A stretch of DNA of 64,000 nt from Gemmatimonadota bacterium. Lineage in GTDB: Bacteria; Gemmatimonadota; Gemmatimonadetes; Palauibacterales; Palauibacteraceae. The translations under genes were made by a program, and so were the position numbers. Below are positions 36,929 through 42,549 of this stretch, piece after piece. The stretch spans positions 16,396 to 80,395 of the forward strand of contig JAVVDU010000005.1 in the NCBI GenBank assembly GCA_032251515.1. The letters run 5' to 3'. Position 1 is the stretch's first letter, and every line of letters starts with the position of its first letter. The notes under the pieces are model-generated. The model was not told the origin of the DNA. It did no database searches and was given only the letters and a program-made list of their open reading frames with translations.

Positions 36929-37924
36929 TCAGAGCGCGCGCAGCGGCGGCCCGATGAACGGGGCGTTCAGCACGCAGGAGATCTGCTGGCCGGCCACGAG
37001 GATCCCGCGGACGTCGCCGCCGCCCCCGCCTCCGCCACTCGCCGCACCGGCTGCCGCGCCGGCGCCAGCTCCGATCAGCGTGCCCTTCCGGCCGCCGAAG
37101 ATGCTTCCGAGGATCGCTCCCGTGATGGCGCCCTGCACCGCACGGCCCCCCGCGCTCGACCCGCCGCCCCCGGAGCCCACCCGCTGCAGGCGTGTCTCGG
37201 CGACGGCGGAGGCATCGATCGGGTAGGACTCGCCCTCGATCACGACCTGCGTGAAGCGGATCGACATGGAGCCGTTCCCGTCACGGTCCGGCTCCACGAC
37301 GTCCACGATCTCGCCCTGCATGCGCGCCCCCGCCGGGATCACCTCGCGCCCCTCGGAGTCGAGGACGGGACGCGACAGGGTGGCGGTGAAGCCGTCTCCC
37401 GGACGGTTCCATTCCGTGCTGAGCTGCTGCTGGAGCCGCACGTCGAAGTTCGTCCCGGCGGGCGCCGGCGTGGACGCGGGAACCGGTTCGGGCGTCGTCT
37501 CGACCGGCTCCGGCGCCGGGAGCTGGGCCAGCCGCTCGGGCACCGGCTCGGGCGCGGGATCCGGGTCAGGTTCGGGCTCGGGTTCCGGTTCGGGTTCCGG
37601 TTGCGGCTGCGGCGCCGCCTCCGGCTCGGGCTCGGGTTCCGGCTCGGGGGCCGGGGCCGGCGCGGCCGCGTCCTCTCCCGCCGCCGCCGGTTCCGGCGTC
37701 TCCGGGAGCGGCGCCTCGTCGGGACGGCCCTCGTCCCGCAGCTCCGGGAGGGTCTCCGGCTCCGCGAGCACCAGGTTCAGCTCCCGGTCCACCTCGCCGC
37801 GCCGCGCCTCCCACGCCTCGGCGGTCCCGTCCGGGCCCGCGTCCGCGCCGCACGCCGCCGCGAGAGCCGCGAGGAGCAGGACTCCTCCGGTGAGTGCGCC
37901 CTTCAGGCTTCCCGTGGCTCGCAT
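36929..37924 (-). CDS. lipoprotein with (PE)n linker and C-terminal glycine-zipper (SlyB/17-kDa-antigen-like)
   Basis: The frame was trimmed to MRATGSLKGALTGGVLLLAALAAACG (lipobox). A long PEPEPEPE/PQPQ low-complexity segment is present. The C-terminus GAITGAILGSIFGG...GAGAGAAAGAASGGGGGGG is a glycine-zipper. Confidence 0.6.
   Translation of the reverse strand: MRATGSLKGALTGGVLLLAALAAACGADAGPDGTAEAWEARRGEVDRELNLVLAEPETLPELRDEGRPDEAPLPETPEPAAAGEDAAAPAPAPEPEPEPEPEAAPQPQPEPEPEPEPEPDPDPAPEPVPERLAQLPAPEPVETTPEPVPASTPAPAGTNFDVRLQQQLSTEWNRPGDGFTATLSRPVLDSEGREVIPAGARMQGEIVDVVEPDRDGNGSMSIRFTQVVIEGESYPIDASAVAETRLQRVGSGGGGSSAGGRAVQGAITGAILGSIFGGRKGTLIGAGAGAAAGAASGGGGGGGDVRGILVAGQQISCVLNAPFIGPPLRAL
37530..37690. 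repeat. low-complexity hexanucleotide-like repeat (ccggag/cccgag; encodes PEPEPE on minus strand)
   Basis: Seen directly as reiterated cgggtt/ccggtt/cgggct units. Boundaries are approximate. Confidence 0.6.
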
Positions 37925-38424
37925 GTCGTCTCCTCCTGCCGTCGCTCCGTCTCGCCCATCTCTCTCACCCACGCAACCGGTCCAGGTTCCGGGATGTTTC
38001 GGAACGGGGGGTGAGGGGTGGCGTTCAGGGAGGAGTCCTGCCCGCTGCGCGCGGGTATCCGCGCGTACTCCTGACCGGCACTATCGATCGTTCTCTCCCC
38101 GGACCGGGCGGATCCAGATGAGCCTGGAGAAGGGGGACCCGCGAACGCCGGAGGACGGAGCGTCCCCGATCGGGCCGTTCCGTCCCATCCGCCTCTCCTG
38201 GCGCCGGGCGCGGCGCGGCAGCGGATCGCGCGACCGGACGGCCCTTCCATCCCCCGGGCAGGATCCCGCCTGCCACGGGCACGATTCCTGCTGACCTCCC
38301 CGGCTGCGGCCCCACATGGTGAACCCCCCGCGCGCCGGCTTCCGGTGCGGCGACGACCGCGATGGAGGCGGGATTTCCCCCGCCGTTCCGTAACGCGGCC
38401 GAGGTTTCTGTGTGGAGGTGCTTT

Positions 38425-39645
38425 ATGTCGCTTCGTCGCCCCCCCCCCAGACCTGTAGAGGCGGGCCGGATCACGCCCGGCCGGGGAACTGATCCCCGCG
38501 CCGGTTCTTTCCGCCGGAGGCTCCCGAGTCCACTCGCCCGAATCTTCATGACGCTCATGGTCATGCCAGCCGTGATCGCCTTCTCCGGTTGCAGGGACGA
38601 GCCGACGGGACCGACTCCTTCCGCGGACAGCCCGACCGCCGGTCGGGACGCCGTGGCGAGCGCGGTCCATCCAGATCAGCTCGAACCGGTGCAGCGCGTG
38701 GCCCGGACGATCGCCATGGCCCTCGCGGACTCGGACGTCCGTACCAACCTGATCCAGCAGATGCGCGGCTCCGCGTACAACGAGCACAAGCTCGTGCTCA
38801 ACCCCTCGGCCGCACGTGCTGCGGAGTCCTCTCTGACGCAGGCGGCGCGAAGCGCCTGCGGCGGGGCAACGTGCCTGGAGGAACTGCTGGTCAGCCTCGG
38901 ATTCGAGGTCGACTTCTACGTGCCGTCGGAAACGCAGCGCCGGACGTGGACGGGTTCCGGTCGGTATCTCGTCGCGGGCTTGTCGGACCCGGACGCGGAG
39001 ATCGCGCTTGCCTTCGACGCCTCCGGACAGTCGCGCTGGATCACGAGCCTGGACAACCCGGGGTTCGATGTGGTGCTGGTCTTGCATCCCGCGGAACCGA
39101 AATCGGAGACGGAGCGGACGCGGCAGCCCGAGGGCGCGACGATCGAGGATGCGACCGACCCACGCACGGAAGTGCTTTCCTCAGAGGCGCACTTCCAGGT
39201 CTGCCCTGATCCTGAAGTGTGTGGCGGTGTTGGTGGCGGCGGTCCGCCCCCTCCCGGGTCTGACCCTCCCCCGCCCCCGGTGACCGGTACCTTCGTCGAG
39301 AGGATCTTCGTGGAGTTCGGAGACGGAATCTTCGCCGGGGAACCAGAGATCTACTTCATCTCGGGATCGGAGTTCTCCGGGCCCCAAGGATTTGTGTCTG
39401 CCACTCGTGATGTCAAGAAGAAACAGTGGGTTACCCTCAATCTCCTGATCACCACAGAGGAACCAGCTCTGCACGGCCCGATTCTCGCGCTTCTGTTCGA
39501 GAGCGACGGCGACTTTCTGAACGACGGCGATGACCCGAAGGGTGAGTCCGTACCCCTGATAACGGGGAGTGGTTCGTATCTCTCCGTGGACCGTTTCAGG
39601 CAGAGAAACGAAGCAGTGTACGATGTGGCGATCACGTCATCGTGA
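38425..39645 (+). CDS. hypothetical lipoprotein (possible Tat-type signal), first gene of GC-poor island
   Basis: ATG 38425 has a GGAGG SD 6 nt upstream. The N-terminus is MSLRRPPPRPVEAG...SFRRRLPSPLARIFMTLMVMPAVIAFSGC, with an RR motif, a hydrophobic core and a lipobox Cys. The internal segment is CPDPEVCGGVGGGGPPPPGSDPPPPP. A C10 tract covers codons 5-8. The alternative start at Met 38548 lacks an SD. Confidence 0.55.
   Translation: MSLRRPPPRPVEAGRITPGRGTDPRAGSFRRRLPSPLARIFMTLMVMPAVIAFSGCRDEPTGPTPSADSPTAGRDAVASAVHPDQLEPVQRVARTIAMALADSDVRTNLIQQMRGSAYNEHKLVLNPSAARAAESSLTQAARSACGGATCLEELLVSLGFEVDFYVPSETQRRTWTGSGRYLVAGLSDPDAEIALAFDASGQSRWITSLDNPGFDVVLVLHPAEPKSETERTRQPEGATIEDATDPRTEVLSSEAHFQVCPDPEVCGGVGGGGPPPPGSDPPPPPVTGTFVERIFVEFGDGIFAGEPEIYFISGSEFSGPQGFVSATRDVKKKQWVTLNLLITTEEPALHGPILALLFESDGDFLNDGDDPKGESVPLITGSGSYLSVDRFRQRNEAVYDVAITSS
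38439..38448 (+). repeat. homopolymeric C10 tract
   Basis: Seen directly (gtcgcc ccccccccag). It lies within codons 5-8 of the 38425 start, or in the 5' leader if the start is 38548. Confidence 0.85.
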
Positions 39646-39703
39646 TGCCTCGGAACCCAGTTTCTGCACATCGCCGGCACGCGGCGTGGAAGGAGTACAA
39701 GAT

Positions 39704-40357
39704 ATGGAACTGCGAGGACTGCGACGGCGGAGTATGCGCGTCGCTGCACTCCTGGGCACTGCTTGGGTCATGATGTTCAGTACGAGTGTCGCCCAGGAAA
39801 TCGGTCGTACTTCCACGCGGACAACTCCCGAGATCGGGCTCGAACTCTGGGCGGGCAGGTCCCCTGAAGCTGGAAGTCCGAGTCGCTTCGCGGACGGAAC
39901 CGGAGGATCATCGGGGCTTGGCCTTTCAGTGGCCCTGACACCACGATGGAGAGGACGGGTGGACCTGACCTTTGCCGACCAGGATCCGGGGGCCACTCTG
40001 TATCACGTTCTTCTCGGCGCGGACTACGAGCTGCTCCCGCCCGGGGGTCGCTTCGGAGTGCGGACCTACGCGGGCCTCGGTGCGGCGATCGTGGACGGTC
40101 CCATAGTGCGCGCCCCCTTGCAACCCGGTTCACAGGAAACATTCCCGCTGGAAATCAGCGAGCGCTGGTTCGAACTCGCCACCGGCCTGGAGGCCCACTA
40201 CCGGGTGCACCGCTTCTTCGAACCGTTCGCGCGGGTTCGGGCGATGGTCGCCTTCCCGGGGGATGAAGTCGTGCAGTTCAGCTTCGAGGACCCCGACGCC
40301 GGCGACGGCCCCCTGTGGAGCTTCCCGCTGCAACTCGGCGTCCGTGCGAGCTTTTGA
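39704..40357 (+). CDS. small outer-membrane beta-barrel protein (OmpW/OmpA-barrel-like), hypothetical
   Basis: ATG 39704 has an AAGGAG SD 8 nt upstream. The signal is MELRGLRRRSMRVAALLGTAWVMMFSTSVAQ. The product has about 217 aa of alternating strands and a C-terminal Phe (GVRASF). Confidence 0.6.
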   Translation: MELRGLRRRSMRVAALLGTAWVMMFSTSVAQEIGRTSTRTTPEIGLELWAGRSPEAGSPSRFADGTGGSSGLGLSVALTPRWRGRVDLTFADQDPGATLYHVLLGADYELLPPGGRFGVRTYAGLGAAIVDGPIVRAPLQPGSQETFPLEISERWFELATGLEAHYRVHRFFEPFARVRAMVAFPGDEVVQFSFEDPDAGDGPLWSFPLQLGVRASF

Positions 40358-40400
40358 CGCACACTCCGCACTTCCCCTCCCCGGTCCGGCCTCTCCGGCC

Positions 40401-41987
40401 GTGACCGGGGGAGGGGGCGCGCGGAGCCGGCGGCACTGGCTATGGGCGCACCGGCCGTCTGCTCTGATCGTCCTTCTCGGGCTGCTGGGCGTCGCCGCGT
40501 GCGGGGACGACGGTCCGCCCACGGGTCCGGACCCGGACGCGAAGCCGGCGGGCTTCCAGATCGAGATCCGGTACGTTGAGGGGACCGACCCGACGCCGGA
40601 GCAGCGGGCGATGTTCGAGCAGGCGGCGGCCCGGTGGGAGGAGGTGATCGTGGGGGACGTGCCGGCCGTGCGGGTGCGACGGCGGGCACCGTTCACGTGC
40701 GTGAATCTCACGGCGCCAGCGCTGGACGAGGAGATCGATGACATCGTCGTGTTCGTTGAGATCGGACCGCTGGATGGGCCATGGCAGGGGACGGGCAACG
40801 GGGGAGAACTCGCGGGGCAAGCGGGCGTCTGCGTACTGCGCGGCAGTTCCCTGCCGGTCGTGTCGGGCATCACGCTCGATGAGGAGGACCAGGCCCTGTT
40901 CTCTGTTCCGCTTGTGCTCCACGAACTCGGCCATGCGCTGGGATTCTTACCGAGTGTATGGCTGCGGCTTGGGCTATTGAAGGACCCGTCGGACCCGGGG
41001 TACGGACGACCGGGTCCGCTGCAAGCGGTGGCGGACGCGACGGTGAGCGAGTGGGAGGCGGCCGGGCGGTTCGGGCTGCCGGGCGGGGCGATGCTGTCCG
41101 AGCACCTGGTGGTGGGCGAGGGGCTCGGGACCTGGACGGACGGCCCCGGCGACGACGAGCTCGTGAGCCTGATCCGGTTCGACGTCGAAGGGGTGCTGGC
41201 TGCGCCACCGCTGAATGCGACGCTCGAGCTTACCCCAGTGACGGCGCAGGGGGATGGGGGTGAAATCGTGTCCCCCCATGGTGCGGCGGGGGCATGGAGT
41301 GAAGAAACAGTGTCCTGGAACACGATGCCGACTATCGGAACTCAGTCAGGAAGCGCTCTTCCCGCAACTTGTGCTCCCACGTGTGACCTGGACGTAACGC
41401 GTCCGGTCGTCGACTGGGTGCTCGGGGGACCGAATCACGGCATCATCGTCAGGCCGGTATTCACCGACCAGTTCGACGCCAACGTGGCCTTCCACACGCG
41501 GCACGCGGCCGACCCGGCGGTGCGGCCGCGGCTGCGGATCTCGCCGGACACGCACTTCGCCGGTCCCGCCGCCCGGGCAGCGTTCGAGGCGCTGGGCGGG
41601 ACGGCCTACGACAGTGCCAAGGTGCCGGTCCAGGACGGGCTGCCGGTGCGTCCCGGTACGGTGGACGCCCACTGGCGGGCCTCCGTGATGCCCAGTGAGC
41701 TCATGGCGCAGCTCGGCCACATCCTGAGCGCCGTGACGATCGGGGCGATGGCGGATCTCGGCTACGAGGTGGATTTCGCTGCGGCGGATCCATGGTCGCT
41801 GCGGGTGAGTGACGTCCGTGTGCAGCCGGAGCTTGCCCTGCCACCCGTCGATGGGGTGGGAGGCGGCCCGCTGTACCGGGTGACACCGACCGGTCACCTC
41901 CAAGTGATCCGGCCCGCGGCAACCGGGGCGACCCTTCAGAACATCTTCGACGCACGTATCGAATCCCCGACAAGGAGGCTCCGATGA
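40401..41987 (+). CDS. zinc metalloprotease lipoprotein, leishmanolysin-like (peptidase M8-like, HExxHALGF)
   Basis: VPLVLHELGHALGFLPSVW matches the HExxHALGF zinc-binding signature of the M8 family. The M8 assignment is from memory. The signal and lipobox are LIVLLGLLGVAACGDD. GTG 40401 is the only in-frame start upstream of the signal peptide. Confidence 0.65.
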   Translation: MTGGGGARSRRHWLWAHRPSALIVLLGLLGVAACGDDGPPTGPDPDAKPAGFQIEIRYVEGTDPTPEQRAMFEQAAARWEEVIVGDVPAVRVRRRAPFTCVNLTAPALDEEIDDIVVFVEIGPLDGPWQGTGNGGELAGQAGVCVLRGSSLPVVSGITLDEEDQALFSVPLVLHELGHALGFLPSVWLRLGLLKDPSDPGYGRPGPLQAVADATVSEWEAAGRFGLPGGAMLSEHLVVGEGLGTWTDGPGDDELVSLIRFDVEGVLAAPPLNATLELTPVTAQGDGGEIVSPHGAAGAWSEETVSWNTMPTIGTQSGSALPATCAPTCDLDVTRPVVDWVLGGPNHGIIVRPVFTDQFDANVAFHTRHAADPAVRPRLRISPDTHFAGPAARAAFEALGGTAYDSAKVPVQDGLPVRPGTVDAHWRASVMPSELMAQLGHILSAVTIGAMADLGYEVDFAAADPWSLRVSDVRVQPELALPPVDGVGGGPLYRVTPTGHLQVIRPAATGATLQNIFDARIESPTRRLR

Positions 41988-42433
41988 TCGCATCCCGCTG
42001 GAACGCGCTGCGGACAGCACTGCTGGTCCTCGCCGTCCTCGTCGTGCCGGCCTGCGACGACGACGATCCGACCGAACCCGTGAGCCTCACGACGGCAGAC
42101 CTCGTGGGCAGCTACGCGGCGACGGTGTTCACGGTCACCGAGGATGGATCGGTGGCCGATGTGCTGACGGTGGGCGGCTCCCTCGAGATCGACCTCGCTG
42201 CCGACAACACGACCTCGGGCTCCCTCGTCATTCCGGCCTCCCTCTCAGAGAGCGGCACCGAGGAGATACTGAGCCTGGCGGGTACCTGGTCGCTGAGCGG
42301 GAGCACGGTGACGTTCGTCCAGGGGGCCGACACGTTCATTCGCGACTCGGACTGGGCCGCGTCCCCCGGCCGCCTGGAGGCGGAGGAGGATTTCGGGGGC
42401 ATCCTGATCCGGGTCGTGCTCGAACGTATCTGA
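41984..42433 (+). CDS. small hypothetical lipoprotein, translationally coupled to the metalloprotease
   Basis: ATG 41984 overlaps the protease stop (ATGA). A strong SD AAGGAGG lies 5 nt upstream. The lipobox is VLVVPACDDDD. The product is 149 aa. Confidence 0.65.
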   Translation: MIASRWNALRTALLVLAVLVVPACDDDDPTEPVSLTTADLVGSYAATVFTVTEDGSVADVLTVGGSLEIDLAADNTTSGSLVIPASLSESGTEEILSLAGTWSLSGSTVTFVQGADTFIRDSDWAASPGRLEAEEDFGGILIRVVLERI

Positions 42434-42549
42434 GCACGACGCCGGCCTTTCGAAAGGAGTGACATCGAACTGACCGGCGCCCCCTGCTGCTCCCTCTCCC
42501 GGCCCGGCTCTCGAGTCGTGCCGGGGAGGGGCCCGGGGAGCGTAGTGCC

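Follow-up and report, generated by a model that had tools for sequence, protein, structure and literature searches.

Leishmanolysin (GP63; structure 1LML) belongs to the M8 family of zinc metallopeptidases (Pfam PF01457) and is built around a HExxHxxGF motif, a third histidine that is displaced from this motif by an insertion, and an ELM Met-turn that follows. It is a GPI (glycosylphosphatidylinositol)-anchored protein with a Cys-switch propeptide. Leishmanolysin-like M8 peptidases are also widely predicted in bacteria; no characterised bacterial M8 enzyme was found in the literature searched. Carbohydrate-binding modules (CBMs) of family 96 are known from the structures 7VBO (TM6-N4) and 8WAB as discrete modules of polysaccharide lyases, and those that have been characterised bind anionic polysaccharides, namely alginate (PMC9971899) and, according to the title of the 8WAB entry, chondroitin sulfate. 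The alginate-binding residues of TM6-N4 are K10-R36 and Y159, and the resemblance of the CBM96 fold to the prodomains of the TGF-beta family has been pointed out (PMC9971899). Small lipoproteins encoded next to peptidase genes have a precedent in the potempin/KLIKK-peptidase pairs of Tannerella forsythia, in which beta-barrel lipoprotein inhibitors, with OB-fold or eight-stranded hairpin-repeat barrels from which an inhibitory loop protrudes, are encoded upstream of the peptidase genes, overlapping or abutting them, and for which co-transcription and inhibition have both been shown experimentally (PMC9890683).

Here we describe two overlapping genes on a 64,000-nucleotide stretch of DNA, referred to below as the window, from the Gemmatimonadota bacterium assembly GCA_032251515.1 (contig JAVVDU010000005.1, positions 16,396 to 80,395). 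Gene A (40401..41987, + strand) encodes a 528-residue lipoprotein that is assigned, from its open reading frame (ORF), Pfam and NCBIfam matches and homologues, to the M8 zinc metallopeptidases with a nested DNRLRE/CBM96 domain. Gene B (41984..42433, + strand) encodes a 149-residue lipoprotein with a calycin-like beta-barrel over residues ~37-149, as judged from an AlphaFold2 model, Foldseek and a family search. The initial annotation of this stretch had singled out the two genes as a candidate pair of a protease and a partner co-expressed with it 1:1. We consider it probable instead that A is an M8 metzincin with a CBM96 domain nested within its catalytic domain and that B is an incidental, stand-alone neighbour. 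The best homologues of A and B are found at E=7e-201 and E=5e-23, respectively, and on this basis both are taken to be real genes.

Gene A and its nested domain

The reading frame of gene A extends without interruption over 528 codons, from a GTG at 40401 to a TGA at 41987. Two earlier in-frame starts, the ATG at 40263 used in the mechanically called ORF and a GTG at 40344, lie within the upstream gene, whose stop is at 40357, and the GTG at 40401 is the sole in-frame start beyond 40357 that leaves a signal peptide. This GTG was chosen as the start because the alternatives overlap the upstream gene and it alone gives a normal signal peptide. The signal peptide and lipobox (40401..40502, + strand; RSRRH..ALIVLLGLLGVAA-C34) were read from the sequence; the lipobox is VAAC, with the codon for Cys34 at 40500-40502. 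Full-length homologues form 15 clusters at 90% identity (P0001-P0015), are 41-68% identical to A and share its domain composition; one of them is named by NCBI 'DNRLRE domain-containing protein [Gemmatimonadota bacterium]'. Together with A they make up the 16 sequences of the alignment and profile that we call A1, and at least 90% of them have the lipobox Cys34. Gene A aligns end to end with these homologues, shows no frameshifts and keeps all of the invariant catalytic and structural residues.

The initial annotation had recognised the HELGHALGF sequence of A (residues 174-182, 40920-40946) as the hallmark of the M8 family and had proposed a profile search as a check. That search places A above the gathering threshold of PF01457, if marginally so (24.7 bits at E=1.1e-5, the cut-off being 21), with the match falling in two stretches, the better of which aligns residues 418-463 with profile positions 285-333. 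The same family is listed in precomputed annotation for 13 of the 15 close homologues. The A1 profile in turn finds leishmanolysin 1LML with E=1.7e-8, and the alignment consists of exactly two blocks. In the first, which spans 1LML residues 119-174, the HExxHxxGF of A is aligned with the HEMAHALGF of leishmanolysin; in the second, the D-G-H-W-R...E-L-M of the profile is aligned with GSHIKMRNAQDELMAP of 1LML, which contains the third zinc ligand and the Met-turn; in A itself this stretch reads D422-A-H424-W-R...E433-L-M435. Among the residues that are invariant in all 16 members of the A family are H174, E175, H178, G181, D422, H424, W425, R426, E433 and M435. Membership of the M8 family is accepted, at the level of sequence, because the Pfam score exceeds its cut-off, 1LML is matched through both blocks, and the residues of the predicted zinc site and Met-turn are invariant. 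Assignment to the NCBIfam family NF038122 ('metallo_LGF') was rejected, as A reaches 17.3 bits where 80 are required and the match is confined to the 16-residue motif.

The two blocks are far apart in A. The N-terminal catalytic block, which includes HELGHALGF, covers residues ~50-198 (40548..40994, + strand) and matches both ordinary bacterial M8 genes and 1LML, and the C-terminal block covers residues 383-467 (41547..41801, + strand), with D422-x-H424-W-R...E433-x-M435 at 41664-41705, and is identified by Pfam, 1LML and residue invariance. Between them, after the HExxHxxG helix and ahead of the third zinc ligand, lies a DNRLRE/CBM96 beta-sandwich at residues ~205-382 (41013..41546, + strand), which is recovered by NCBIfam, Pfam, profile comparison and Foldseek. 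NF033679 (DNRLRE_dom) matches residues 249-380 with 61.5 bits (cut-off 34), and PF24517 (CBM96) matches residues 243-380 with 37 bits (cut-off 26). The middle of the A1 profile likewise matches the solved modules 8WAB (E=7.9e-8) and 7VBO (E=8.2e-5). When the predicted structure of the insert is searched with Foldseek, the chondroitin-sulfate-binding CBM 8WAB is found at E=1.1e-7 with a template-modelling (TM) score of 0.71 and the alginate-binding CBM96 7VBO at E=7e-5, and the prodomains of pro-BMP9, pro-activin and pro-TGF-beta are also found, at E=2e-4 to 1e-3.

That this domain is an insertion follows from a comparison with 24 M8 genes of the ordinary bacterial kind, drawn from many phyla, which match A in two blocks (residues ~50-200 and ~383-467) that are contiguous in those proteins. 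An insertion of ~55-60 residues is present at this point in all M8 enzymes: the spacer from HExxHxxG to the third histidine is ~55 residues in 1LML, ~60 residues in a bacterial relative and ~240 residues in A. Among the homologues found, the nested form is seen solely in P0001-P0015. A protein of Bacteroidetes bacterium SW_9_63_38 (542 residues; L016 5776-7404) carries its catalytic blocks at residues 76-197 and 214-303 and, behind them, a DNRLRE domain at 301-490. This domain and the insert of A are 32% identical, the BLASTP alignment covering residues 201-377 of A; the tandem arrangement suggests a domain rearrangement as the origin of the nested form. The nested-domain M8 architecture is undescribed.

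The initial annotation had described the region of about 330 residues that follows HELGHALGF as Gly/Thr-rich and as lying after the catalytic domain, and neither description holds. Residues 199-528 contain 11.2% Gly and 7.3% Thr, against 12.6% Gly in residues 1-198, a composition that is ordinary for a window of 73% guanine plus cytosine (GC), and the region comprises the DNRLRE/CBM96 domain and, after it, the remainder of the M8 domain. Only residues 468-528 (41802..41984, + strand) form a tail beyond the catalytic domain in alignment A1. This tail has no Pfam match; it is partly conserved, with the motif PxDGxGGGPLYRV, in the closer homologues and is absent from P0012-P0015. The further remark that A has no C-terminal sorting signal was borne out by the Pfam search, which found none. 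A lipoprotein needs no such signal. A propeptide is also absent, the first conserved catalytic block in A1 beginning ~17 residues after the lipobox Cys.

According to the model that we favour, A would be a lipid-anchored, propeptide-less metallopeptidase in which H174, H178 and H424 form the predicted zinc site, E175 serves as the catalytic base and M435 provides the Met-turn, and it may act as an endopeptidase tethered to the envelope or the cell surface. The inserted beta-sandwich, placed beside the active-site cleft, would bind a polymer and in this way target or position the substrate and direct proteolysis. By analogy with 7VBO and 8WAB (PMC9971899), an anionic glycan is a candidate for this polymer. 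If so, such proteins would point to proteases of marine or soil Gemmatimonadota that are targeted at substrates rich in glycans.

Several observations weigh against this model. The Pfam M8 score of A barely exceeds its cut-off, and the AlphaFold2 model of A, computed from the 16-sequence alignment, has a mean predicted local distance difference test score (pLDDT) of 49; most of the catalytic segments stay under 50, the insert reaches 70-83, and the insert is all that Foldseek recognises in this model. That the insert binds glycans is an extrapolation from the characterised modules, and the region corresponding to K10-R36 of TM6-N4 lies outside the Pfam and NCBIfam matches, which start at profile positions 36 and 26, respectively. 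Its fold is, moreover, also found in the prodomains of the TGF-beta family.

These last points bear on a different role for the insert, namely that it is an intramolecular regulatory or latency element in the manner of a TGF-beta prodomain, or an exosite for protein substrates, rather than a glycan module, with B remaining unrelated. The likeness to TGF-beta-family prodomains, seen by Foldseek and noted for the CBM96 fold (PMC9971899), would fit such a role, as would the lack of a conventional propeptide in A and the position of the CBM96 ligand-binding part outside the family-model matches. However, the best matches of the insert in both sequence and fold are the glycan-binding CBMs 8WAB and 7VBO, and the L016 protein carries the same domain appended at its C-terminal side, an arrangement typical of a targeting module. 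We regard a regulatory or exosite role as unlikely.

Gene B and the question of a protease-partner pair

The start codon of gene B overlaps the stop codon of gene A in the sequence ATGA (41984..41987, + strand), and an AAGGAGG Shine-Dalgarno sequence (41972..41978, + strand) lies within the 3' end of A, 5 nucleotides before the ATG; both elements were read from the sequence and are as the initial annotation had reported them. Its classification of both proteins as lipoproteins is likewise upheld by the lipobox cysteines Cys34 in A and Cys24 in B. The lipobox of B, VPAC, is slightly atypical, and Cys24 (42053-42055) is conserved in at least 90% of its family. The product of gene B matches MDT8435622.1 with 100% identity; that entry, called a 'hypothetical protein', comes from a metagenome-assembled genome of Gemmatimonadota (locus tag RRA92_02595, on a contig of 86.6 kb).

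The AlphaFold2 model of B is an all-beta barrel with a mean pLDDT of 87.7 that rises above 95 at residues 31-149. Its Foldseek matches are consistently calycins, among them lipocalins, fatty-acid-binding proteins, Bla g 4, CRBP1 and bacterial lipocalin-like lipoproteins (3LHN, the lipocalin-family protein 4GZV and YedD), and all are weak (E 1e-3 to 1e-2, TM 0.33-0.54). No Pfam or NCBIfam family, lipocalins included, matches B, the one Pfam hit at E<=1 being DUF6287 at E=0.2. An exhaustive profile search of cluster representatives assigns B to a large family: with clustering at 50% identity and E<=1e-3 it comprises at least 1,397 clusters, 156 of which reach E<=1e-30. These (representatives P0089-P0236) are lipoproteins of ~140 residues with the conserved motifs GTW.LSGS.VTF and ADTFIRD, and nearly all of the top 150 representatives are stand-alone proteins of 109-194 residues. 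Fusions to peptidases were not found: the ten longest of these 150 have no Pfam match, and the five that were read individually are explained by a wrongly called start, an added Ig-like stretch or a tandem duplication of the lipocalin-like part. The modelled structure is consistent with B being a calycin-like lipoprotein of a large uncharacterised family, although the barrel match is weak. Neither Pfam nor NCBIfam models this sizeable family, a candidate for a new domain family.

Whether A and B form a conserved pair was examined from both sides. On the protease side, nine loci with homologues 44-68% identical to A, from six lineages (L001/L002/L033, L003, L004, L005/L006, L034 and L035), were supplemented by 24 loci with distant M8 genes that are without the insert (L009-L032), taken from among the matches listed in a profile search of genome contigs. 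A profile search of metagenomes for the A family gave three loci, and a search of viral contigs with the A1 profile gave nothing. Six-frame searches by tblastn and with a hidden Markov model (HMM) of the B family found no B-like ORF in any of the nine close or 24 distant loci; the genes downstream of the A homologues encode instead an SBP_bac_5 protein, a sigma-54 response regulator or a 738-residue protein.

On the other side, no M8 gene was found in eight further contexts of B homologues, comprising seven loci searched by tblastn and the A-family HMM and the contexts of P0079 and P0088, which were examined by gene tables alone. Their neighbours are diverse: an acid phosphatase and a Mur-ligase-like protein (P0079), a cupin and PALP (L007), unknown proteins of 492 and 120 residues (L008), a 136-residue unknown and a 239-residue metzincin lipoprotein (L036), unknowns of 150 and 161 residues with an integrase further downstream (L037/L038), partial ORFs only (P0088), a 241-residue unknown and a partial ORF (L039), and a 149-residue unknown and a PALP-like protein (L040). 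With no B-like ORF beside the protease homologues (0 of 33 loci) and no M8 gene beside the B homologues (0 of 8), the co-occurrence that had been set as the test of the proposed 1:1 pairing is lacking, and the pairing is not supported. The overlap itself is not distinctive, as start/stop overlaps of 4 nucleotides occur in 11 of the 38 pairs of adjacent same-strand genes counted in related contigs, functionally unrelated pairs included. Such an overlap with a strong Shine-Dalgarno sequence is common in these genomes and by itself does not predict a functional protein pair. We suggest that the A-B overlap reflects compact gene packing within a lineage-specific block of envelope-protein genes.

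A dedicated interaction between A and B deserves to be weighed all the same, since a part of the evidence runs in its favour. It would make B a lineage-specific inhibitor or escort lipoprotein of the potempin or AprI kind, co-translated with A in order to silence or place a protease that has no prodomain. Both proteins carry lipoboxes, their genes overlap with a strong Shine-Dalgarno sequence in between, A lacks a propeptide, B is a small beta-barrel, and the Tannerella potempins show that lipoproteins of this kind can be peptidase inhibitors encoded by overlapping or abutting genes (PMC9890683). It should also be borne in mind that the sampled B contexts are nine of more than 1,000, and that the closest B homologue (P0072, 57% identical, L036 1188-1541) lies 15 nucleotides upstream of the gene for the 239-residue lipoprotein (1557-2276), which has a full metzincin signature, HELGHSLSLPH...NLM, and matches the Pfam families Reprolysin_3, M7 and M10 at scores that are all below their cut-offs. 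Two of the nine sampled B contexts thus abut a zinc metallopeptidase lipoprotein, a post hoc count from a small sample in which the peptidases are of different families and the gene orders are opposite.

Against this stand the absence of the A-B pairing from all nine close and all 24 distant protease loci and from seven of the eight other B contexts, and the disproportion between the two families: that of B, counted at 50% identity, is far larger than that of the nested-domain protease, with its 15 homologue clusters at 90%, by roughly two orders of magnitude, and it occupies unrelated neighbourhoods (cupin/PALP, acid phosphatase/Mur-ligase-like, ABC transporter). The L036 homologue is truncated at its C-terminus, so that the ADTFIRD motif and the last strands are missing. 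No relationship of B to the Inh/AprI inhibitors (PF02974) could be upheld, since Pfam gives no match to the Inh family, and neither a potempin nor AprI is among the top 50 Foldseek matches of B; fusions to peptidases are lacking, and the order of the two genes is opposite to that of the potempin loci. A dedicated A-B interaction is in our judgement doubtful.

A more far-reaching version can be drawn from the L036 locus. B, or the subclade marked by 'LVIPASLSESG', could represent a new calycin-fold inhibitor or escort of prodomain-less metzincin lipoproteins that was recruited independently here, to an M8 enzyme, and in L036, to a small metzincin of the HExxHxxxxxH type, and the insert of A could add an exosite or latency role. 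We hold this to be improbable; if true, it would amount to a potempin-like system of protease control in Gemmatimonadota that is derived from an unrelated fold.

Genomic setting

Upstream of A, two genes on the same strand, U1 (about 38548-39645, with the lipobox AFSGC) and U2 (39704-40357, 217 residues), form a block with A and B in which the successive gaps are 58, 43 and -4 nucleotides. Both were called as ORFs, have no Pfam or NCBIfam match and, like A, show a lowered GC fraction at third codon positions (0.72-0.77). U2 carries a signal peptide that is cleavable (SVA-QE) and ends in Phe, and is possibly a small outer-membrane beta-barrel. Homologues of U1 and U2 were found in none of the A or B loci and, with B also absent beside the A homologues, the U1-U2-A-B arrangement looks lineage-specific. 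No paralogue of A or B is present in the window by tblastn.

The block (38500-42450) has a GC fraction of 0.61-0.70 and a GC fraction at third codon positions (GC3) of 0.72-0.87, against a GC3 of 0.91-0.96 in the flanking genes, which include polA, and may be an accessory block that was acquired or is weakly adapted in its codon usage. The exact protein of gene A, whether started at 40401, 40344 or 40263, has no match in a collection of 15 billion proteins. The adjacent B from the same NCBI record is in that collection, and the coding sequence of A may be missing from the record or marked there as a pseudogene, its frame being intact. Decay or inactivity of gene A, with the A-B pair devoid of functional meaning, is very improbable, for although the absence of the A protein from a collection that holds B and the low GC3 of the block would fit decay, the frame is open over all 528 codons without a frameshift and every invariant residue is retained.

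Gene B and polA are convergent, and the interval between them (42434..42549, no strand assigned) can form a GC-rich hairpin with a minimum free energy of -62.3 kcal/mol (z = -2.79 against shuffled sequences). It was not called by the terminator scan because it has no T-run, and is probably the end of the transcription unit, acting as a bidirectional terminator. The consensus scan for promoters and terminators returned no promoter and terminator-like matches that were not above those of shuffled sequences, and Rfam and tRNA scans gave nothing in the window.

Divergent from U1, the gene at 36929-37972 (- strand) encodes a probable lipoprotein (LLLAALAAAC) with a long acidic (PE)n/(PEPEPE) linker and a Gly-rich C-terminus; the opposite strand of the (PE)n repeat reads as a spurious GSGSGS ORF.

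A different neighbour recurs beside the nested-domain protease genes elsewhere. A lipoprotein of ~680-760 residues without a Pfam match adjoins them in five of the six lineages, lying directly upstream in four (with a 4-nucleotide overlap in L001), downstream in L005/L006, and being absent from L004 (copies at L001 2746-5004, L003 2838-4877, L033 1506-3716, L034 4-453, L035 8-1039 and L005 6403-8619). The L005 copy has the metzincin motif HELSHVLGFGH and the L001 and L003 copies are without it, and this lipoprotein may therefore be a protease/pseudoprotease partner. The window contains no copy of it. U1 and B were each considered as diverged forms of this lipoprotein and rejected, as hhalign aligned the signal and lipobox region only, with probabilities of 0.7% and 27%, respectively.

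Comparison with described systems

The potempins are the best precedent for a partner role of B, which shares with them its small size, predicted beta-barrel and lipobox and a gene that abuts that of a peptidase. In contrast to the potempins, B is encoded downstream of the peptidase and is predicted to adopt a calycin-like barrel; its family is huge and spread over unrelated contexts, and no B-like gene was found beside the homologues of A.

Gene A shares with leishmanolysin the HExxHxxGF motif, the displaced third histidine and the ELM Met-turn. Unlike leishmanolysin, it is predicted to be a bacterial lipoprotein rather than a GPI-anchored protein and is without a Cys-switch propeptide. Only ~235 residues of the catalytic core are recognisable in A, its overall sequence similarity to leishmanolysin is low, and the spacer of ~55 residues in 1LML is expanded to ~240 residues that contain the DNRLRE/CBM96 domain. 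Bacterial proteins annotated as 'leishmanolysin-related zinc metalloendopeptidases' (P0046 and P0041 of Candidatus Palauibacter, and the distant M8 genes of L009-L032), many of them from Gemmatimonadota, share the catalytic blocks of A at 30-50% identity. In those proteins the catalytic domain is contiguous and Ig-like, PKD or cadherin-like domains are placed C-terminal to it, whereas in A the accessory domain is nested. The L016 protein combines the same two modules as A, arranged in tandem (catalytic 76-303, DNRLRE 301-490) rather than one inside the other. Likewise, the CBM96 domains of 7VBO and 8WAB are discrete modules of their polysaccharide lyases, whereas that of A lies inside the peptidase domain. 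The M8 spacer can thus hold a whole CBM96/DNRLRE domain of ~180 residues, and the clade of A offers a tidy natural case of domain nesting beside a predicted active site.

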